Source: Thermoanaerobaculia bacterium (GTDB taxonomy: Bacteria > Acidobacteriota > Thermoanaerobaculia > Multivoradales > Multivoraceae). From it: 64,000 bases of DNA. Within the stretch, counting starts at the first letter, position 1, and each line of letters begins with the position of its first letter. The notes under the pieces are model-generated. The model worked only from the letters and a program-made list of their open reading frames with translations, was not told where the DNA came from and searched no databases. The stretch spans positions 4,928,001 to 4,992,000 of the forward strand of contig OY761158.1 of NCBI GenBank assembly GCA_963664405.1, in the 5' to 3' direction. Below are positions 35,223 through 63,503 of the stretch, piece after piece. Made by a program: the position numbers and the translations under genes.

Positions 35223-35276
35223 CCTCTAGAATGAATTTACCATTCGCCGATTGACGCCATCAGAGGAGATGACCCT

Positions 35277-35948
35277 ATGACCGAGTACACCACCTACGAG
35301 CAGGTCGGCGACGTTGCCCTCATCAGCATGGACGACGGCAAGGCCAACGCTTTCGGGCCACCCATGATTGCCGCCGTCAATGCAAGCCTCGACCGCGCCG
35401 CGGACGATGCCAAAGCCGTCGTATTGACCGGCCGGCCCGGCATCTTCTCGGGCGGCTTCGACCTCAACGTGATTCGCGGTGGAGACGCGGCACAGGCGCG
35501 CGCCCAGGGGTTGGGCGGCGCGCGTCTGATGATGCGTCTGTTCGGATGGCCGCAGCCCCTGGTCGTCGCTGCCCCGGGGCACGCCATTGCGCTCGGCGCT
35601 TTTTGTGTGCTCACCGGAGATCATCGCCTGGGTGCAGACGGTGAGTTTGGAGTCGGTCTGAACGAAGTCGCCATCGGCGCGACGCTGCCGCCGTTCGCCT
35701 GGCTGCTGGCGAAGGAGCGACTTTCCAAACGCTATCTGTCGCAAGCGACTCTGACCGCCAAAATTTACGACCCCAAGGGTGCGCGCGATGCCGGCTTTCT
35801 GGATGAGGTCGTGGAGGCCGACAAGCTGCGCGACGTCGCGCTCGAATGTGCGGCGAAGCTGGCCGAGCTCCCCGCCGAGGCCTATGCGGGCATGAAGCAG
35901 GGCCTGAGAGGCGAATCCATCGCCGCCGTCCTCGCCGATCTCGGCTAG
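35277..35948 (+). CDS. Crotonase/enoyl-CoA hydratase family protein
   Basis: MDDGKANA, FSGGFDL, GHAIALG, GLNEVAIG. Confidence 0.9.
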   Translation: MTEYTTYEQVGDVALISMDDGKANAFGPPMIAAVNASLDRAADDAKAVVLTGRPGIFSGGFDLNVIRGGDAAQARAQGLGGARLMMRLFGWPQPLVVAAPGHAIALGAFCVLTGDHRLGADGEFGVGLNEVAIGATLPPFAWLLAKERLSKRYLSQATLTAKIYDPKGARDAGFLDEVVEADKLRDVALECAAKLAELPAEAYAGMKQGLRGESIAAVLADLG

Positions 35949-41844: not shown

Positions 41845-43972
41845 GACTGGCGATTCAACAAGCGACGTTAGGCTGTCGGTTCCTTGGATCTGCCTCTTGG
41901 TTGCCGGTTGTCTATTGGCGCAGGCCGGAGCCCGTGCGCAGACCCTTTCTCGTAGCCGTGAGATAACCATCGATGTAATCGACGGGCGAGCGTCAGACAC
42001 TCTCGATGCGTCGGCCCTTCGAGTCGAGCAGGGCGGTGGTGAGGCGGAGATCGTGGACCTTCGACCTGTTGCCGGCAGCCCTTGGAGCCTGCTGATCTAT
42101 GTCGACGCTCTCAGTTCCACTGCCCAGGGGCTCGAAAGGGCCGCGGCGGTTCTGCAAGAGGTCGTTCCGGTGCTTACCGGACTCGGCGAGGTGACCCTGC
42201 TCGTAGTCGACGAGCGGCCAGAGCCGTGGATTGAGAGCAGTCGTGATCGAGGGGAGCTCGAGCGAGCGTTTGCAAAGCTGGCGGAGTCCCCTTTCCAACG
42301 GCCGGATCTGGGAATAGAGGGCTTCTCGTCGTGGCGGCGAGGGCTGTTGATCGATGCCCTGGTGGGCGCGGCCGGTGATGGCCCGCGGGCCGTTCTCGTA
42401 GTAGGGGACGCCAACGGCGAGCGGTTGACGACGACAGAACGAGAGGTAGACCGCCTCGAACGAACCAGCCTGGCGGCGATTACGGCGGCTTTGGACTGGG
42501 TTGCTTTTCCGCTCCACCTCGCCGGCGATGGCGCGGATGTTGCGATCTCGCCCTTGGCCGAAGAAACCGGCGGCGCCGTAGCAGCGGATGCCGATGGGCT
42601 CTCGGATGCGCTGCTGCGACTCCACGAGCGCTCATTTCTTCGCTTTCGGGAGCGTGTCGGAGGTAATGGTGAGATCACTCCACTGTCGGTTGTGACAGAG
42701 GCCGGAACAGTGCGGGCCGCGCGTTGGTCGGCGCCGATCAGCCCGGATATCGTGCTCATAGCGCGCGGGAACGGCCTTCTCGGTGAAGGAGTCGATGGCG
42801 ATCTCGACGTGATCAGTACCGGTACGCTGGAGAGCGATGGGAACGGAGAGGAAGAGCTCGAGCTGGAGATTCTGACCGAGGTGTCTTCTCTCCCCGCTCT
42901 TGAACGGCCCCTGGCGGATTTGGTCAGAAGAGGCGCCAACTACTTCTCGTCCTCGCGTCTGCGAGTGACTCTGTTGCTCGACTTTGTCGACCAGTCGCCG
43001 TCCATCTTGCATTTTCGCGGACGCGGAGCGCGTCTCTCCGGCTCCGCCAGGTGGCTGGTTCAGGCACGGGCGCCGGTCTCGGCCGAGCTACGACAGGTGG
43101 TGGCCGTCGTCGAGGACCTGGGGACGGGTCGATGGGGCGTGGCCGAGATCGATTTCGGGGGCGACTCTCTGGGGATACTCGATCCGGACACCGTCGTCGA
43201 GGCGGTCGATCTGCGCCCCGCGACGGATGCCGAGGACAAGCTGATCGAGCTCATCCCTCCTCGTCAGCGCGACCTCACCGGAACGCAGCAATTCCGCACC
43301 ATGTCGCTCAGCTCTCTCATCGGCCGGGTGGTTTTCTACCTCGACGGCAAGGTGATGGGGGAGGATCGGAGAAGTCCTTTCAGCGCGCGCATCGATCTCG
43401 GACCAGAGCTGAGACCTCGGGAAGTTGAGGTGGTCGCTTTCGATCGCGCCGGCCAAGAGATGGGGCGCGACAGCCTGATCGTCAATCGGGGAGGTAGCGC
43501 CTTCGAGGTCGAGCTCGTGCGAGTCGAAGGAGATCCGGTCGATGGATTGCTACAGGTTGCGGTAGAGGTCAGTGTTCCTCCCGAGCGCTCCCTGGATCGT
43601 GTCGAGCTGTGGTGGAACGACACTTTGAAGAAGACTTTGGAGAGCGCTCCGTTTGTCTCGGAGATCGGGGTCCGGGGGACCGGCGGCACTGACTTCGTTC
43701 GGGCGGTCGCCTATCTCGACGACGGCAGCAGCTTCGAGGATGTGGAGCTCTTCGGCGCCGAGTTGCGTTGTAACCCCGGCGCGTTGCATCATCGGGTCAA
43801 GCAAGTAAAGAGGATCGCACCGGAACACTCAACCTTCCGGGCAGGAGAGCCAGTTGTTGTATCGAATGTTGTTGGTGTTTCTGCTGCCGGCCTTGGTTCA
43901 CGCCAAGCCGAACATCTTGTTCATGATGGTCGACGACCTCGGCTGGAACGATGTCGGCTACCACGGCAGTGA
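41822..43972 (+). CDS. Secreted VWA-like/Ig-domain protein, probably C-terminally truncated near 43760
   Basis: Ig-like segments (VVFYLDG..PFSARIDLG; FVRAVAYLDDGS..ED); tail runs out of register into the sulfatase leader. Confidence 0.6.
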   Translation: MRNAVQAKTGDSTSDVRLSVPWICLLVAGCLLAQAGARAQTLSRSREITIDVIDGRASDTLDASALRVEQGGGEAEIVDLRPVAGSPWSLLIYVDALSSTAQGLERAAAVLQEVVPVLTGLGEVTLLVVDERPEPWIESSRDRGELERAFAKLAESPFQRPDLGIEGFSSWRRGLLIDALVGAAGDGPRAVLVVGDANGERLTTTEREVDRLERTSLAAITAALDWVAFPLHLAGDGADVAISPLAEETGGAVAADADGLSDALLRLHERSFLRFRERVGGNGEITPLSVVTEAGTVRAARWSAPISPDIVLIARGNGLLGEGVDGDLDVISTGTLESDGNGEEELELEILTEVSSLPALERPLADLVRRGANYFSSSRLRVTLLLDFVDQSPSILHFRGRGARLSGSARWLVQARAPVSAELRQVVAVVEDLGTGRWGVAEIDFGGDSLGILDPDTVVEAVDLRPATDAEDKLIELIPPRQRDLTGTQQFRTMSLSSLIGRVVFYLDGKVMGEDRRSPFSARIDLGPELRPREVEVVAFDRAGQEMGRDSLIVNRGGSAFEVELVRVEGDPVDGLLQVAVEVSVPPERSLDRVELWWNDTLKKTLESAPFVSEIGVRGTGGTDFVRAVAYLDDGSSFEDVELFGAELRCNPGALHHRVKQVKRIAPEHSTFRAGEPVVVSNVVGVSAAGLGSRQAEHLVHDGRRPRLERCRLPRQ

Positions 43973-56510: not shown

Positions 56511-57348
56511 ATGAAGCTCAAACAACCGACCTTTCTCATCCCGCTTGGCGGTCTCGTTCTGGTGCTGGGGATGGGCTGCTCGGATGCCTTGCCAGAGGCC
56601 GAGAAGGGAGAACAGGGAGGGGCCCGACGTCGCGTCACCGGTCCCGGCATCGGGAGCTGAAAAGCCCACAAGCTTGCCTATCGTCGACCGAGCCATCGAA
56701 TTCCACGGCGGCGACATCTACGAGGCCTCAAGGACCGCTCTAACGGTGACGTCGCGGTCGGGAAGTTTCGACCTCCTCGTGACGAGGAACAGCGGCGAGT
56801 TCGACTACACCGTGACGGGAAAGGTCGGCCGCGACCAGGTCGAGCGCAAGGTCCACTACATGAACACATCGGTGGAGCGTTGGGACAATGGTGAACCGTT
56901 CGAGCTCGACGAGGAAACGGCGCAGCGGGCCCGCAATTTCGTGAACGCCAGGGTCTACTTCCCCTTCCTGCCGTATGGGATCAATGGCGCTGAGGTATAC
57001 CGGGAGGATCTCGGGGTCGACATCTGGGAGGGCAAAGAGCTACACAAGGTTCGAGTGAGCTTCGAGCCGGGCACGTCGACGGACGCCGACGACCAATACA
57101 TGTACTGGTTCGATCCGGAGACCGGCGAGATGGCGATGTTCGGGTACGACTTCACGAACGGCCTTCGCCTGCGCAAGGTCAGCGGGTCGCAGCGGGTTGG
57201 CGGTGTGCTCTTCACGGATCAGGAGAACTACGCGATCGACGGGCAGGGCTTCTCGGTCCTCCAGCTGACGCCGGACTTCGTCGCCGAGAACATGGAGCTG
57301 CTCTCGACCGTGAAGCTCTCGAACGTGGAGGTGCAGGGGTCGAATTGA
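56511..57348 (+). pseudogene. DUF6503-like lipoprotein, frameshifted near 56615-56625
   Basis: ATG 56511 MKLKQ..LVLGMGC lipobox in one frame; body IVDRAIEFHGG..YFPFLPY..YMYWFDP in the +1 frame. Confidence 0.7.
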
Positions 57349-57350
57349 GC

Positions 57351-57379
57351 CTGTCGCGATGCACCGAATTTCACGACCG
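57351..57379 (+). repeat. 29-bp putative recombination site 1
   Basis: ctgtcgcgatg-caccgaa-tttcacgaccg; 2 nt after stop at 57348. Confidence 0.6.
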
Positions 57380-57420
57380 CCCGCCCCTCCGCTCAGAGGC
57401 TTATTTACTTTCGGCTATTC

Positions 57421-57432
57421 TTGTCGCAGTCC
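57421..57432 (+). repeat. Site 2, left part (split by IS110)
   Basis: ttgtcgcagtcC joins 58999-59015 to give ttgtcgcagtc-cgccaga-tttcacgacac. Confidence 0.75.
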
Positions 57433-57459
57433 CAAGGGATGAGATGTCAAGACAAATCT

Positions 57460-57828
57460 TTCCTAGGCCCTCGACGACTTGATATCGAGCGCGGTACTTT
57501 CCGTTACCGAGCCGGTCCGCTACGCGCAGTTCGGTCCTCAGATCGGTTGTGTGAGCGGTGCGGCGTTGGAGATAAGAAGCGAGTTTTGGTGTCCTACTAG
57601 GTTTGTGGACCAACTTCCCAACGGGGCCTCTTAGGCCATTTCTTCTTTCGGTCCTGTGAGGGGGCCTAGTTTCCGCCTGGTGACTTCCACCGTCTTCGAT
57701 GGGGCCGATGACGACACTGGAGACTTCCCCTCGACCTTTCGATCTCGCTGCCGATCCCGCTCCCGATCCAGGCTCCTGAGCTACGTCAGCCTGCAGACGG
57801 CTCGAGCAAGGAGCGGAGAAGGGGTGGC
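57460..57828 (-). ncRNA. Putative bridge/seek RNA of the IS110 (boundaries approximate)
   Basis: Contains GUGUCGUCAUC (57717-57707) and CCAGGCGGA (57680-57672), which match the target-site consensus. Confidence 0.6.
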
Positions 57829-58863
57829 TCAGCTCATGGGTTTGTACTCGCTTTCGGTCTTCCACATCGCCAAAACGATGGCCGCGAGCTTGCGCGCCAG
57901 CGTCAGCTGCGCCAGGTTCGGGTTCGTCCCGGCTTCTAGCATGCGGTCGTAGTGGTTGCGGAAGGGGTTGGGCGCCAACATCGTGCGCGCTGAGAGCGCC
58001 GCGCCCTTGAAGACCGCTTTCAGCGGCCGGTTGGATGCCCGATTCAAACCGCGGGTCTGGATCACCGGTGCGCGCACCCAGTGCCCGGACTGCTGGACCC
58101 AGTCCGAGGAGCTCCGAGTCACGATTCCCAGACCACAGTACGACCAAAACTGCCGCTTGGTGCGAAACCGGTGCGGTGTGACCACCGTTGCGAGCAGGAT
58201 CGCGGCTCGCTTCTTGGCAATCCCCGGTGCGGTCTGCAGCGTGCTCCAGACCGGAAACTGCGCAGCCGCAGCGTGCATCTGTTTCTCTGCTTTCTCGTGG
58301 AGCTCTGCGAGCAAATCGATCTGCTCGCCCCAGATCTCCGCGCACGGACGTCCGCTCGGAGGCAGCTGTTTTACCCACTTCGAGCGATGCCGTGGTAGGT
58401 AGAGGTCGCCGTTGGGGCACGTCACCCCCCGCCGACGGTAAAGGCTGTTCAAGCGCAGCTTCGTGCGAGTCAGATCCTGGGTCAGCTTCGACTCCAGGCG
58501 CACCGCTTCGCGCAAACGAGCCCACTCCTGCCCGGGCTTGTACACCGGCGGGCCCGTCCGATTCGTCCGCAGACGCTCTGCCAGCTCCCGAGCATCGCAG
58601 GCATCGCTCTTCGGACCTCGACGCTTCTCGGGCCGACAGACCACCAGGCGAGCCACCCACGGTGTCAGAATCTCTGAGATCCACTCGCCCCACTCGCCCT
58701 CTTCCACACAGACGTGCAGCGGCCCTCGAAGCTCCCGCACCGTCTTGACCAGCTCCGACCCTTCGGTCGGCACCACCATCTGCTTGACCTTCTTGCCTCG
58801 CGGGCTCACCAACGCCAGCGTGCAGCTGTCGCGGTGGGGATCGATGCCAAGGTATCGTTCCAT
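57829..58863 (-). CDS. IS110-family transposase/recombinase
   Basis: YLGIDPH, CVEEG, KSDACDA (DEDD); APGIA, RF..KRQFWSYCGLGIVTRSS, LARKLA. Confidence 0.95.
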   Translation of the reverse strand: MERYLGIDPHRDSCTLALVSPRGKKVKQMVVPTEGSELVKTVRELRGPLHVCVEEGEWGEWISEILTPWVARLVVCRPEKRRGPKSDACDARELAERLRTNRTGPPVYKPGQEWARLREAVRLESKLTQDLTRTKLRLNSLYRRRGVTCPNGDLYLPRHRSKWVKQLPPSGRPCAEIWGEQIDLLAELHEKAEKQMHAAAAQFPVWSTLQTAPGIAKKRAAILLATVVTPHRFRTKRQFWSYCGLGIVTRSSSDWVQQSGHWVRAPVIQTRGLNRASNRPLKAVFKGAALSARTMLAPNPFRNHYDRMLEAGTNPNLAQLTLARKLAAIVLAMWKTESEYKPMS

Positions 58864-58998
58864 CTTGGTCCTCCTTCCTGGGTCCAAGCCCAGGTGTTTG
58901 TGTTTCCCTAAGCTTGACGCCTTCGGGGGAGGACCACTCAAGAATATTCATCGACATCGTCCGGGGGCGCCACCCGCGCGCCATCCCATGATGTTTGC

Positions 58999-59015
58999 GC
59001 CAGATTTCACGACAC
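58999..59015 (+). repeat. Site 2, right part
   Basis: gccagatttcacgacac; 2 nt from the kinase stop at 59018. Confidence 0.75.
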
Positions 59016-59017
59016 GT

Positions 59018-61735
59018 TCACTCGGTAGGCACCAGCCGCTTCAGCTCCTCGAACCAGTTCACGACGACATGGAGCTTGGCGTTGATCTGCTCGTGTGCTC
59101 GCTTCACCACGAAGAGCTGCTGACCGTCCGAGGAGACATCATACGAGCGCCCCGGCGTATCGATGAAATCGGTTTCGAAGACGAGCTGCGCCGGGCCGAA
59201 CTCGATCTTCCGGCCCTGCCTGAACGTGTGCGCGAACCAGCGGTCACCATCGCGATAAAAGAGCTCGTCACAGCCACGGCAGACGTACGGCTCCATGCCT
59301 CCGTTGGTCGAGATCTGCTCATCGGCTTCGTCGCCTGGATAGGAGCGAACTCGAATCTCATAGCGACCCGTCCGGTTCGAACTGTGCGCAAACCATCTCC
59401 CGTCTCGAGAGAAATAGGGCGCGGCCTCGCTGGCGTCGCTACGAGAAGCCCAACGTACTGTATCGTCACCGATCTCTAGAAAGCCGAAACGGAACCTGCC
59501 GTCAAAGCTGTAGACCCCGAGCCTGTCGCCGTCCGGATGCCACGAACCCGGAGCAACGCGGGTCTCTCCCATAAACACTAGTTGCGGTTCCTCGTCGCGA
59601 TCTGCTGCCGCAATGAAGAGCCCATGCCCTTGCCCCGGCATCGCCGCCGTGAAAGCGATCTCATCGCCGTCCTGGCTCCACTTGGGCCAGCCCGCGTTAC
59701 CGGGCACGGTCAGTCTCCTCTCTGTCTTCGCCACGCGGTCCCAAATGACGATGTAGTCGTTGACATCTGCGACCTGAAGGGCGATCCGGGAACCGTCCGG
59801 GGAGAACTCGAAGTAACCGTAGACTCGCTCGGGTAGATCCAGGAACTCGACCGCTTCGGTGCCGCGGTCGATCGATGCGATCTTGCCGATCGCTGCGTCG
59901 CTTCCGGGCACATAGACCAGCGTACCTGTCGCCGAGAAGGCAACCTGAGCTTGGCCGAATAGCGATTCCATCCTCACATCTGGTACAACCGGAACTGAAG
60001 CGCCGAAGACCTCAAGGGCGGCGATGTCAAACGCTACCGCGTAGAGCGTCCCGGAGCGAGCGAACAGCAAGTGACCCGTGGGGACGTATCGCGCGTCGTA
60101 CCCGCGTTCGATCAGTAGCTTTCGCTCCAGTGTCTCTAGCGAGAGCAAATAGGTATTTGCATAGTCGTGGCCGATGCTCGTTAGGGCAGTCTGGATGAGT
60201 GCGTGCTTGCCGTCGGGAAGCACGTCGCTGAGGTATGTTTGACGGCCGCCGACTCCAAGGCTGTCGATCTCGGTGACAGTGCCGCCGGCTTCGGGAACGC
60301 TGCTCAGCGTGAACCCCTCGTCTTCAGCGAAAAAGATCGTTCCGTCAGCTACCCATGCAGCGTGTGTGGGATTCCTCGCCTTGCATACGGTTTGTGGGCG
60401 ATCTCCCTCTCTCAGCGAGACTTTCTTGACCTCTTGGTTGGTCAGGAATCCGAGCCAATCGCCGTCTGGCGAGAAGAATGCAAAGAGGGCGCCCTCCGTT
60501 CCCTCGATCGGCTCAGGTTCATCGAAGCTGTTGATGGGACGCTGGTAGAGCAGGGTGCCCGGGCCGTACTTGCCGATGTAAACGATAAGCGCCCCATCCG
60601 GAGATACGGCTACCTGCGGGCTATCAAACCCGAGAGCTGTTGTACCGAAGCCGAGAGGTGCTTCTGCCGGGAAATCGATCTCTGTGCGCACAACGACTGC
60701 CGCCGTGGGCGGCGACCTAGGCTCGGATCGTTGTCGCCACGCGGTACCAAGCCAAAGACCGGCCGCTAGGGTAGTCAGCGCGACGACGATGACCATAGCC
60801 AACGTGGAAACGGAAAACGCCCCGTGCCCGCCAGCCGGCACGGTCGCCACGACACGCTGCGACTCGGGATTGCGCAGCGCGTCGCTGATCTCGATTCGTG
60901 CGTCGGCGATATCGTGCAACCGATCCCTCGCGGGCTTTGTCAGGCAGCGCCTCAAGAGCCGAACGATCGAAGCTGGTGTCGGCGGCGGAAGTTGCTCCCA
61001 TTCAGGTTCCCGTTCAAGTATCTTTGCGAGTGTTTCGGGAGCCGTCTGCGCATCGAAACCGCGAGATGCAGTTAGCGCCTCAAAGAGGCAGACTCCGAAA
61101 GCCCAAATGTCCGCTCGCCGGTCGACCGCCTGACCTCTCGCCTGCTCGGGAGCCATGTAGGCGGCTGTGCCGAGAATCTGACCCCGTTGAGTTGCTGCAA
61201 GAGTGAGGGTCGGAGACTCGGACAAGCCGTCGTCTCCGCTCGCACTGCCTTCCACAGCCATCGCCTTGGCCAGCCCGAAATCGAGGATCTTGACCTGACC
61301 GTCTTCAGACACTTTGATGTTCGCGGGCTTCAGATCGCGGTGGATGACGCCCTTTTCGTGGGCTGCCTCCAGCCCCTCAGCGATCTGCAAGAAGACGGGC
61401 AATGCTTCGTCGACTGGCATGGCTCCTCTCTTGATGCGATCCGCTAGAGTCTCGCCCTCCACCAGTTCCATGACCAGGAAGCTGGTGTCGCCTTCCCGCT
61501 CGAAGGCGTAGAGCGTGGCTATGTTGTTGTGGTTCAACGAGGCCAGGACCCGCGCCTCGCGCTCGAAGCGAGCCAGACGTTCTGGATCGGTGGAGACCTC
61601 TTCGAGGAGGAGCTTGATCGCCACCTCGCGCCCGAGCTTCGTGTCCATGGCTCGATACACTTCTCCCATGCCTCCCGCACCAAGCGAGGAGACCACTTCG
61701 TAGTGGCCGAGCGTCGAACCAGCTTCCAGCGCCAT
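59018..61735 (-). CDS. Ser/Thr protein kinase with TM and TolB-like beta-propeller
   Basis: LGAGGMGEVY, VAIK, HRDLKPAN, DFGLAK, APE; SPDG repeats. Confidence 0.95.
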   Translation of the reverse strand: MALEAGSTLGHYEVVSSLGAGGMGEVYRAMDTKLGREVAIKLLLEEVSTDPERLARFEREARVLASLNHNNIATLYAFEREGDTSFLVMELVEGETLADRIKRGAMPVDEALPVFLQIAEGLEAAHEKGVIHRDLKPANIKVSEDGQVKILDFGLAKAMAVEGSASGDDGLSESPTLTLAATQRGQILGTAAYMAPEQARGQAVDRRADIWAFGVCLFEALTASRGFDAQTAPETLAKILEREPEWEQLPPPTPASIVRLLRRCLTKPARDRLHDIADARIEISDALRNPESQRVVATVPAGGHGAFSVSTLAMVIVVALTTLAAGLWLGTAWRQRSEPRSPPTAAVVVRTEIDFPAEAPLGFGTTALGFDSPQVAVSPDGALIVYIGKYGPGTLLYQRPINSFDEPEPIEGTEGALFAFFSPDGDWLGFLTNQEVKKVSLREGDRPQTVCKARNPTHAAWVADGTIFFAEDEGFTLSSVPEAGGTVTEIDSLGVGGRQTYLSDVLPDGKHALIQTALTSIGHDYANTYLLSLETLERKLLIERGYDARYVPTGHLLFARSGTLYAVAFDIAALEVFGASVPVVPDVRMESLFGQAQVAFSATGTLVYVPGSDAAIGKIASIDRGTEAVEFLDLPERVYGYFEFSPDGSRIALQVADVNDYIVIWDRVAKTERRLTVPGNAGWPKWSQDGDEIAFTAAMPGQGHGLFIAAADRDEEPQLVFMGETRVAPGSWHPDGDRLGVYSFDGRFRFGFLEIGDDTVRWASRSDASEAAPYFSRDGRWFAHSSNRTGRYEIRVRSYPGDEADEQISTNGGMEPYVCRGCDELFYRDGDRWFAHTFRQGRKIEFGPAQLVFETDFIDTPGRSYDVSSDGQQLFVVKRAHEQINAKLHVVVNWFEELKRLVPTE

Positions 61736-61795
61736 TAGATGGGCGGGATCTTATCTCTCACTGACCGGAGTCAGCTGGCAGGAGTCGCTTTCGCC

Positions 61796-61824
61796 GTGTC
61801 GTCCTCCGCCAGGAATCACGACAC
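61796..61824 (+). repeat. 29-bp putative recombination site 3
   Basis: gtgtcgtcctc-cgccagg-aatcacgacac. Confidence 0.8.
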
Positions 61825-61925
61825 CCCCACGAAGCAGAGTACCTCCTGAGTCGGCTCCGTATGGATACCTCAGGAGTACACTCGAGTCTCCGGGAGCATT
61901 CCCGAGTCACGAAAACCAGTTCGTC

Positions 61926-62225
61926 ATGTCCCGTATAGTTCACCGGACCCTTTGGTTGACTCTCTTTCTGGCGATCGCCTTCAATTCTCCACCGGTACTG
62001 ATTCACGCTGGTCCCCTCGGGATTCTTGCTCTGTTGCCTCTCGTCGTTTGGAGCTTGGCCGCGGTGCCCTTTTCCTTCTTTCTTCCGAACCACTTCGGCA
62101 TCACTGACTTCGGGCCGGAACCAGAGACCCCGTTTGCCGTTGGGCTCGTGGTCGCTGTCTGGTGCTTTGTCGCCTGGGTCGGGGCGGTTCTCCTCGTGAG
62201 AATCAAGGAGGCTCGGGAGTCGTGA
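61926..62225 (+). CDS. Small membrane protein
   Basis: 99 aa, about three hydrophobic segments. Confidence 0.55.
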   Translation: MSRIVHRTLWLTLFLAIAFNSPPVLIHAGPLGILALLPLVVWSLAAVPFSFFLPNHFGITDFGPEPETPFAVGLVVAVWCFVAWVGAVLLVRIKEARES

Positions 62226-62611
62226 AGGGATCCCTTCCTCGAGGGTTGGCACCGATGTCCTTCAGTTCCGCGTTGGGCTTTGGTATTTGGGCCGCTTCAC
62301 CGTTGATCACCGGTCGTGCAGAGCCCTGGGATGCCGAGATCACGTACTACACGCTCACCTCGGTGATCGGCGCGGCCGTGGTGGGCTACGCCTTCCCCCG
62401 CCATTGGCTGCTCGTCTTCCCCGGAGCCTGGTCAGGCCAGGTGATAGGACTGGCGGTCCTGCCGGGTCTTGACAGGGGATGGCTGCTTCTTGGGGCCATC
62501 ACGACCGGCATCGGCAGCCTACTCTTTCTTCCCGGTTCGGCCCTCGGTGCGCTCGTCGGCCGGCGGACGCGGAAGCGTCGGGGGGCGTCGAAGGAGAAGA
62601 CAGGGGACTAG
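62222..62611 (+). CDS. Small membrane protein
   Basis: AGGAGG RBS, GTG overlapping the upstream stop; ITGRAEPWDA; about four TM segments. Confidence 0.6.
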   Translation: MKGSLPRGLAPMSFSSALGFGIWAASPLITGRAEPWDAEITYYTLTSVIGAAVVGYAFPRHWLLVFPGAWSGQVIGLAVLPGLDRGWLLLGAITTGIGSLLFLPGSALGALVGRRTRKRRGASKEKTGD

Positions 62612-62629
62612 CTTGCCTCGGCGGGGAAG

Positions 62630-62658
62630 GTGTCGTGGTTCGCCAGATTTTGCGACAC
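62630..62658 (+). repeat. 29-bp putative recombination site 4
   Basis: gtgtcgtggtt-cgccaga-ttttgcgacac; 2 nt from the stop at 62661. Confidence 0.8.
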
Positions 62659-62660
62659 TC

Positions 62661-62801
62661 TCAGTCGGCGGGCACGCCGCTAGCCAGAACGCCCGAGTCT
62701 TCCAGGTCCTTCTTCAAGTCTTCAAACTCCTTCCGGAGCTTGGCTATCAGCCCCCAGGCAATGATCCCAAATGTCATTCCAATCATTCCAAACACTTCCA
62801 T
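62661..62801 (-). CDS. 46-aa TM plus coiled-coil microprotein
   Basis: AGGAGA RBS; MEVFGMIGMTFGIIAWGLIAKLRKEFEDLKKDLEDSGVLASGVPAD. Confidence 0.65.
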   Translation of the reverse strand: MEVFGMIGMTFGIIAWGLIAKLRKEFEDLKKDLEDSGVLASGVPAD

Positions 62802-62918
62802 TGTGCTTCTCCTTTTCCTTGGTCACAGCAGACTGTCCGGTGTAGCTGTCGGCGCTCGCCTGGCTTGCCCCGTGACTCCAGCCTGAGGGTCGGGCGTGGG
62901 GCTGAAGCGCGACGCCCA

Positions 62919-63350
62919 TCAGAGCGCAAGCGCGCCGAAGTAGACAAAGGGCGCGCTGATGGCGATGCGCACCAGTCCCAACAGGCGCCACCCGATCAGG
63001 CTCCCACTCAGGTCAGAGGGCACGAACGCCTGGATGATGGCTCGGAAAGAGCCTGGGAACAGCACCAACGCTGTTGTCATGAACACGACCAAGACCCAGC
63101 CGATGAGCGACAGGATGAACGCCAAGGTGCTCTGCCCATTCAGGTCCAAGGACCCCTGCTCTGAAGCTCCTGCCCAAATCATCGCCAACCCGAGTGGGAG
63201 CAAGAACGCCCCGAACGTTCGGGTTCGACCGTTCGTCGTGGTCGTCCTAGTGAACCAGCGCAGCACAGACGCTGGCGCGACGAAGACGAAGCCCCCGTAG
63301 CCAACACCGAGGACCCCAACCGCGATGCTCACGATTCCAAGCGCGCTCAC
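62919..63350 (-). CDS. Membrane protein
   Basis: AAGGAGG RBS; about four TM segments. Confidence 0.7.
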   Translation of the reverse strand: MSALGIVSIAVGVLGVGYGGFVFVAPASVLRWFTRTTTTNGRTRTFGAFLLPLGLAMIWAGASEQGSLDLNGQSTLAFILSLIGWVLVVFMTTALVLFPGSFRAIIQAFVPSDLSGSLIGWRLLGLVRIAISAPFVYFGALAL

Positions 63351-63474
63351 GAGCCCTCCTTAGAGACTTCCTTGGGGGTGGCTGAACAAGCTACCCGAGT
63401 GGCTGCTTTCAGCGACATCGAATGGACAGCATTCTAGCTGGCGGTTCAGGAGCCTGATAGCTATTCAGCTCTTC

Positions 63475-63503
63475 CTGTCGTCCTTCGCCAGGAAGTGCGA
63501 CAG
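63475..63503 (+). repeat. 29-bp putative recombination site 5
   Basis: ctgtcgtcctt-cgccagg-aagtgcgacag. Confidence 0.8.

Follow-up and report, generated by a model that had tools for sequence, protein, structure and literature searches.

The element, its ends and its relatives

The 64,000-nt stretch analysed here (positions 4,928,001 to 4,992,000 of contig OY761158.1, assembly GCA_963664405.1, from a Thermoanaerobaculia bacterium; hereafter the window) is part of the single 6.78-Mb contig of the source genome. Between positions 57431 and 58996 it carries an insertion sequence of the IS110/IS1111 type, which interrupts a palindromic repeat of the form TGTCG-N17-CGACA. Considering the anatomy of the element, its site specificity, the conservation and covariation of an RNA downstream of its transposase gene and the covariation of the guides of that RNA with the flanking DNA, all of them observed in this work, this is very probably an IS110-family insertion sequence with an IS1111-type layout, encoding a bridge/seek RNA that guides insertion into the repeats called type 1 below. 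The features of the element, its ends and its site are listed in window positions.

57352–57378, plus strand: intact companion site of type 2, some 70 nt upstream of the one that is interrupted
57421–57430, plus strand: left half of the interrupted type-1 site, including the core GT at 57429–57430
57431–58996, minus strand: IS110/IS1111-type insertion sequence with a length of 1566 bp, in which the dinucleotide core is counted once; its flanks restore TGTCG-N17-CGACA, and its ends are set by a second copy and two remnants
57433–57441, minus strand: right sub-terminal inverted repeat, which reads CATCCCTTG in element orientation; 8 of its 9 positions are complementary to the left one
57445–57450, minus strand: -35 hexamer TTGACA (TGTCAA on the plus strand), 12 nt from the right end in the 57433–58998 frame
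57829–58866, minus strand: DEDD/serine transposase gene, 345 aa, with PF01548 and PF02371 both over cut-off
58982–58990, minus strand: left sub-terminal inverted repeat, CATGGGATG in element orientation, 9 bp
58988–58993, minus strand: -10-like hexamer CATCAT (ATGATG on the plus strand), 5 nt from the left end, and 17 nt from the -35 hexamer only once the ends are joined
58995–59015, plus strand: second core copy TT (58995–58996) and right half of the interrupted type-1 site, read from the sequence and the remnants

The flanking DNA reads TTGTCGCAGTCC, element, GCCAGATTTCACGACAC. An earlier note on this DNA had framed the element as 57433–58998, at an offset of 2 bp, and had claimed that its excision restores a site with the exact N17 spacing. 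The claim holds for both frames equally well, since cutting out either 57433–58998 or 57431–58996 leaves TGTCG-N17-CGACA, a 27-bp palindromic repeat of the same form as the intact sites of the window. We prefer the frame 57431–58996 because two solo left-end remnants elsewhere in the genome diverge from the present copy (copy 1) directly past ..GATGTTT, because a second copy (copy 2) then has identical TT dinucleotides on either side, and because the guide register found across the family sets the dinucleotide core there. In element orientation the core is AA, and the right junction of copy 1 is AC. Insertion was specific for site and orientation and occurred without a long target duplication, with no more than 2 bp shared in copy 1, copy 2 and remnant A.

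Mapping of the other insertions in the genome, a check suggested in the earlier note, placed copy 2 and remnant A in type-1 sites, a more distant relative (c3) in a site of the same family and remnant B beside a type-2-like half-site. Copy 2, at ~779.07–781.93 kb, encodes an identical protein within an element that is 99.7% identical, and occupies the same position and orientation as copy 1 in a type-1-like site with N16 spacing. Remnant A is a 96-nt left end at 1.1448 Mb (L004, 1144819–1144958), 97% identical, which abuts CCGCCGAATAATGCGACAC, a type-1 half-site, again in the position and orientation of copy 1. Remnant B is a left end at 3.9626 Mb (L005, 3962570–3962679), 87% identical, abutting its type-2-like half-site. 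Both solo left ends are relics of earlier insertions. The relative c3 (L003, 5459560–5461170) is 68% identical and lies in a TGTCG-N17-CGACA site near the CGACA arm, with the asymmetric centre in the opposite orientation; its right guide matches its own flank at 10 of 11 positions. The right end of copy 2 is in turn split by a 1284-bp element of the ISL3 family (L002:3065–4348; genome 780614–781897) with an 8-bp duplication, ATCTTTCC, and this insert parts the terminal 31 nt of copy 2, the -35 box included, from the remaining element.

The transposase combines an N-terminal RuvC-like DEDD domain (PF01548, 42.3 bits, cut-off 29) with a C-terminal Transposase_20 domain (PF02371, 40.2 bits, cut-off 21.3). 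Its nearest solved structure is IS621 (8wt6, E 5e-6), with whose catalytic acidic residues D9, E55/56, D88 and D91 align; Ser253 aligns with the serine of the SG motif of IS621, the next residue being S here instead of G. In place of the IS1111 C-terminal motif GL-P----S(t)G the protein reads GLGIVTRSSS, in which GL and the serine are kept and P and G are replaced. The IS1111-type assignment is made by layout and features, the named proteins compared being IS621 and ISCro4 (PDB) only. Among 8000 relatives scored, 5574 reached E 1e-20 or better, the best of them 91% identical, and within the same taxonomic family a transposase at E 1e-40 or better occurred in 1 of 57 genomes, namely the source genome. 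The protein listing includes closer homologues (P0001–P0020, 60–91% identical) than the loci studied on DNA, which are 38–51% identical.

Non-coding DNA accounts for ~130 nt upstream of the transposase gene and for 396 nt downstream of it (57433–57828), the latter figure replacing the ~370 nt of the earlier note. The sub-terminal inverted repeats match at 7/9 or better in 25 of the 34 homologous loci examined for them, none being present at that level in the other nine. Beyond the repeats lie 6 bp on the left and 2 bp on the right in the 57431–58996 frame, with the core counted on the left, or 8 and 0 bp in the 57433–58998 frame, these figures depending on the core assignment. Abutting the ends brings together TTGACA, 12 + 5 = 17 nt and CATCAT, facing the transposase gene; the junction claimed earlier thus reads as described, with the hexamers at 57445–57450 and 58988–58993. 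No sigma-70-like promoter was found in the linear element, and a lone TTGAC, equally far from the terminus, is present in 30 of the 42 homologous loci having at least 260 nt downstream of the gene. Judged from its sequence, the promoter appears to be split between both ends, and would be complete only across the joined ends.

A conserved two-loop RNA and its guides

The region downstream of the transposase gene was compared across 81 homologous loci, consisting of 80 metagenome loci among the matches listed (the set at 38–51% identity given above) and one genome locus (L011, a remnant). An nhmmer profile of the two-sequence core, which had emerged from copy 1 and c3 as a common scaffold broken by two variable stretches, detected the RNA core downstream of the transposase in 60 of the 81 loci, and 11 of the 21 misses have less than 200 nt downstream. 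The resulting features of copy 1 are the following.

57586–57743, minus strand: conserved two-loop RNA core, bridge/seek RNA candidate, ~158 nt, with covariation across the family
57607–57654, minus strand: second internal-loop domain, candidate donor-binding loop; GGACC/GGUCC stem and GGCC hairpin, helices 4 and 5 being 89.0% and 98.7% paired, with compensatory changes
57614–57622, minus strand: left-donor guide, 3' strand of loop 2; RNA GUUGGGAAG, sense of the right terminus CTTGGG plus core
57669–57680, minus strand: left-target guide, 3' strand of loop 1; RNA CCAGGCGGAAAC, sense of the left flank plus core
57681–57706, minus strand: apical hairpin between the target guides, folding as CCAUCG/CGGUGG; at its base lies helix 3, with 88.6% pairing in the family alignment
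57707–57717, minus strand: right-target guide in loop 1 (5' strand), with the RNA sequence GUGUCGUCAUC, which in element orientation is antisense to the right flank

The architecture is that of an outer stem, an internal loop 1 capped by a variable hairpin, a second stem and an internal loop 2 capped by the GGCC hairpin, and the family alignment shows hypervariable segments within a conserved scaffold. For the structure alignment of 60 sequences, L031 and L037 were left out for poor alignment and the second match was used for L059. Five helices with 23 pairs were 94.7% paired in this alignment, compared with 80.7% in shuffles and 30–54% with slid partners. Compensatory changes were found in 16 of the 23 pairs, with a covariation score of 0.430 versus 0.187 that none of 500 shuffles reached, and RNAalifold independently recovered four of the five helices. 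The covariation analysis against homologues that had been called for earlier therefore speaks for a conserved structure. A covariance model built from it (157 positions, 23 pairs) matched copy 1, copy 2 and c3 in the source genome and no orphan copies; copy 1 scored 100.6 bits, its own sequence having been in the training set. Single-sequence folds were no better than shuffles, either for the core (z -0.47) or for the whole non-coding region (z -0.75), and the evidence for RNA structure therefore rests on the alignment. A search of Rfam with 57300–59100 at E up to 10 returned nothing except a chance microRNA match, and no family of Rfam release 15 reached its gathering score anywhere in the window. 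On two loci a second partial match to the core lies upstream of the complete element (L059:33–111, L072:992–1111), which suggests tandem or nested elements.

Three guides could be followed across the family at a fixed register, with the right terminus anchored at TTGNNN+8; 17 of the 60 loci were without such a right-end anchor. The 5' strand of loop 1 carries the right-target guide, reverse-complementary to the final element bases and the right flank; this guide matched its own flank at 8.33 of 11 positions on average (n=43), compared with 5.18 for unrelated guides (standard deviation 1.05, n=1728); for 27 of the 43 right flanks no unrelated guide scores as high. On the opposite strand of the same loop, the left-target guide carries the sense of the left flank and core, with an own match of 7.64/11 (n=25) versus 5.28 (standard deviation 0.98). 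In loop 2, the left-donor guide is located on the 3' strand and carries the sense of the right terminus and core; the anchor of the right-target test had used the donor-guide match, and the donor test was therefore repeated with a guide-independent anchor (own 7.03/8, n=30, versus 4.24, standard deviation 0.99). Covariation of guides with targets, the property on which the earlier proposal had been made to depend, is thus present for both strands of loop 1 across homologous elements, and three of the four guides are now assigned. A boundary-free best-match guide search over 420 nt proved too noisy, and the fixed-register tests were used instead. Seven loci (L017, L018, L020, L021, L022, L025 and L028), whose DNA is 80–91% identical and whose RNA scaffolds are near-identical, differ in all guides and flanks, and this set is a natural series of reprogrammed guides.

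For copy 1 itself, the earlier note had read the RNA as CCA-GUGUCGUCAUC-[26 nt]-CCAGGCGGA-AACUAG, and this string is present on the minus strand of 57664–57722. Its first segment matches the arm GTGTCGTCCTC of the intact site at 61797 at 10 of 11 positions, as had been noticed, and its second segment is indeed the reverse complement of TCCGCCTGG, of which the 61797 site, reading TCCGCCAGG, has 8 of 9. The donor loop, which the note could not identify, would correspond to the second internal loop at 57607–57654, whose 3' strand matches the right terminus of the element; the left-donor guide matches the terminus CTTGGG plus AA at 6 of 8 positions in copy 1 and, counted by hand, at 7 of 8 in copy 2.

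The two copies in the genome provide a second view of the target guides. They show 5 differences in 1541 aligned bases, and exactly 2 of the 158 positions of the RNA core differ, one in each target guide. The right guide of copy 2, CUGUCGUCAUC, has C at the equivalent of 57717 and matches the right flank ACGACAG at 7/7, while its left guide, CCAGGCGCAAAC (GGCGC), matches the left junction GGCGC-AA-AC at 9/9. The version of copy 1, GGCGG-AA, fits the half-site of remnant A. We estimate a chance of ~2e-3 that two of five changes fall within the 23 guide bases out of 1541, and both changes are toward the flanks of copy 2 itself. Guides thus covary with targets within one genome as well, and the two copies form a natural reprogramming pair in which one base per target guide differs in step with the flanks.

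The repeat family and its arrays

The target repeat is a distinct feature of this genome. In the window, TGTCG-N17-CGACA gives 8 strand-matches versus 1.52 expected, a number that none of 100 shuffles reached, with intact sites at 57352, 61797, 62631 and 63476. Genome-wide, TGTCG-Nn-CGACA occurs 118 times with n=17, compared with 6–32 times for each other n from 8 to 29. These 118 sites comprise 56 of type 1, with a CGCC(A) centre, 33 of type 2, with a CACC centre, and 29 of neither type; a type-2 site often lies 66 nt upstream of a type-1 site elsewhere in the genome. When the window sites were folded as single-stranded DNA, three of four formed arms of 6–7 bp (z -1.9 to -3.2), and the type-2 site gave no fold (z +0.5).

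The agreement between the guides and this family was measured in a genome scan for the composite 20-nt target that follows from the two target guides. At 14/20 or better, 20 of the 118 N17 sites were recovered versus 0.48 expected; 6 stood at 15/20 versus 0.067 expected and 3 at 16/20 versus 0.011 expected, the window site at 61797 being among the three. Given this enrichment, the guides fit the repeat family.

Most sites (88 of 118) fall in seven clusters, at 0.018–0.041, 0.599–0.618, 0.748–0.779, 3.945–3.965, 4.990–5.004, 5.457–5.475 and 6.507–6.523 Mb, the sites of the window spanning 57352–63502. The arrays are built of modules of ~2.8 kb with paralogous Ser/Thr kinase and PD40 genes, for example 59018–61735, and of modules of ~0.83 kb whose genes, on either strand, encode small hydrophobic proteins. 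In four public sequencing runs the contig depth jumps at least 10-fold at 58975–59116. This segment comprises the kinase-gene 3' end and the half-site next to it, and in the samples concerned it is a conserved sequence that is widely repeated. Tyrosine recombinases gave five matches with near-identical scores, several of them inside or beside arrays (L092–L094 and L097; coordinates 35274–35741, 43025–43489, 597334–597798, 615598–616062, 887650–888117 and 5456101–5456556). The recombinase of L094 has 286 aa, and one of 179 aa lies just outside the 5.457-Mb array; both fall under the NCBIfam cut-offs for XerA, XerC/D and integron integrase, leaving a canonical integron without support.

The repeat sites may be elements like the repetitive extragenic palindromic (REP) sequences, recombination sites or terminators. 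One could speculate, though we consider it rather improbable, that they serve for recombination in a cassette system like that of integrons or Xer modules, in which multi-copy Xer-like tyrosine recombinases beside several arrays would shuffle kinase and small membrane-protein genes; the insertion-sequence clade would in that case live on this system as a specialised parasite, confined to the sites by a structural or protein gate together with its guides.

Mechanism, alternatives and significance

In the mechanism that we propose, an element laid out as a short left end, a DEDD/serine recombinase gene and a 396-nt right end, with 9-bp repeats and a split promoter, would excise as a circle. The circle would assemble TTGACA-17-CATCAT and thereby drive expression of the transposase and the RNA. 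The RNA would then bridge the circle junction and a type-1 TGTCG-N17-CGACA repeat, and recombination at the core would yield an insertion in a single orientation, 1–2 nt from the CGACA arm. Transcription, binding of the RNA by the protein and the chemistry of strand exchange are modelled here on IS621 and on IS1111-type elements and would be expected to proceed as in those systems.

The IS1111-type elements with a seekRNA (ISEc11, ISPa11, ISKpn4 and ISPst6; Siddiquee et al. 2024, PMC11187229) resemble the present one in their DEDD transposase of 330–350 aa, their long downstream non-coding region, sub-terminal inverted repeats and circle-junction promoter, and in targeting repeated sequences, which are REP for ISPa11 and attC for ISKpn4 and ISPst6. 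In both, the antisense (R) guide comes first and the sense (L) guide second, so that the sense/antisense arrangement proposed in the earlier note is borne out. The element differs from them in its target, TGTCG-N17-CGACA with a CGCCA centre, in the deviating C-terminal motif and in its repeats, 9 bp with one mismatch here versus usually 11–13 bp there. Moreover, its RNA core of ~158 nt has a second, donor-matching loop, whereas purified seekRNAs measure 70–100 nt. IS1111 elements extend beyond these repeats by 7 (or 6) bp at the left end and by 3 bp at the right, and the repeats themselves span 7–17 bp in Durrant et al. (PMC11208160).

With the IS621 bridge RNA (Durrant et al. 2024, PMC11208160; Hiraizumi et al. 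2024, PMC11208158) the RNA shares two internal loops with one guide per loop strand. Likewise, L-guides have the sense of the top strand and pair with the bottom strand, R-guides are antisense and pair with the top strand, and the core dinucleotide is common to the guides (PMC11208160); the DEDD residues and the serine align as well. Unlike in IS621, the RNA lies in the right end rather than the left, the order of guides within a loop is reversed, the protein is distant (E 5e-6), the core is AA/AC instead of CT, the right-target guide does not cover the core, and a right-donor guide was not found by eye. ISPpu9 and ISPpu10 of Pseudomonas putida (PMC12288879; 10.64898/2026.03.19.712850) are also IS110-family elements residing in repeated palindromic intergenic sequences, in another host lineage and another repeat. 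A stem-loop in the target of ISPpu10 is reported to act as a structural gate that confers specificity in addition to base pairing (10.64898/2026.03.19.712850, a 2026 preprint); for the present element such a gate is a possibility only.

Several observations weigh against RNA-guided insertion into type-1 repeats as we propose it. Counted by hand, the guides of copy 1 match the site that it occupies at only 13 of 20 positions, a level reached by 9,162 positions in the genome. The right guide matches its own flank at 6 of 11 positions, and 10 unrelated guides score as high; its two core positions mismatch the AA core specified by the other two guides, and it fits N17 sites only if its register is moved by 1 nt from that of the family. 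Out of 1,732 genome positions at 14/20 or better only 20 are array sites, and the four best (17/20) are not. The left guide of c3 matches its own left flank at only 7 of 11 positions, and its transposase is frameshifted. A right-donor guide, antisense to the element left end, was looked for by eye in the loop 2 5' strand of five subgroups, and none was recognised. The family counts overstate the number of independent events, the loci being related among themselves. The transposase scored 118.5 bits with the NCBIfam equivalog NF033542 ('IS110 family RNA-guided transposase'), under its cut-off of 140, which probably reflects a diverged clade.

The public sequencing runs belong on the same side. 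Part of the element occurs in 17 of them, and four were compared, all as contigs. Over the element, the contigs of X3 and X5 (marine sediment, RNA on record) and of X1 (guessed to be RNA) are 90–99% alike, X3 having a 202-nt contig over 57540–57741 with 6 differences, and the gene at 57271–57412 beside the element is without cover in X3 and X5; X14, a DNA run, carries the element at the same site. RNA-labelled libraries may contain DNA, and contigs carry no strand or end information, so these data are not counted as evidence of transcription. Neither a circle junction nor an empty site or a joint across the element was seen in the contigs of the four runs.

As far as these counts of sequence matches go, simple base pairing would not single out the array sites in the source genome. 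The weak fit of copy 1 to its own site can be accounted for in either of two ways: position weights, wobble and the core outweigh a plain count, or a factor other than pairing confines the element. The second option leads to a possible, though on balance unlikely, explanation, in which the guides play a part but a second determinant would be the main reason why the element stays within array sites; this determinant, read by the recombinase, could be the palindromic or hairpin shape of the site or a site-bound protein. Besides the modest fit of the occupied sites, 13/20, and the fact that the best-matching positions are not array sites, this explanation draws on the location of every insertion found, which is within or next to a site of the repeat family, on the folding of three of the four window sites as single-stranded DNA and on the precedent of ISPpu10. 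Against this, mismatch counting ignores position weights, wobble and the core and may understate the specificity of the guides, and the type-2 site of the window does not fold.

It is very improbable that the copies spread by duplication or recombination of element-bearing array modules instead of site-specific insertion. The arrays do consist of repeated ~2.8-kb and 0.83-kb modules whose flanking sequences recur, but copy 1, copy 2 and remnant A have different flanking DNA both inside the site and outside it, with CAGT versus TTT as left arms and a spacing of N17 versus N16; the neighbouring sequences of both copies differ too, and the guides differ in step with the flanks. That the guide-like matches are due to chance and the downstream region is a mere untranslated tail is scarcely credible. 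The shuffle-level single-sequence folds and the absence of an Rfam match would be expected of such a tail, but the idea is already contradicted by the conserved structure with compensatory changes across 60 sequences and by the three separate own-versus-foreign tests, and does not sit with hypervariable segments flanked by conserved scaffold or with the enrichment of guide matches at array sites. The claim of the earlier note that the element is RNA-programmed to target the array sites is therefore supported, with the qualification set by the 13/20 fit and by the limits of simple pairing.

RNA-guided members of the family that target REP palindromes or attC have already been published. New here are the clade, the RNA model, the target repeat and the natural two-base difference in guides between the copies, although the covariance models and tables of Durrant et al. 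may already cover the clade. Our results describe a clean natural bridge/seek-RNA transposon in a clade far from those studied so far, for which a family-wide RNA model now exists, and the guide difference between copy 1 and copy 2 yields directly testable guide-swap predictions. The element also singles out the repeats as genomic sites that form a real and recognisable class. Likewise, the contrast between a weak guide fit and a strict confinement to one repeat family makes this element a candidate for studying how off-target insertion is limited beyond base pairing.

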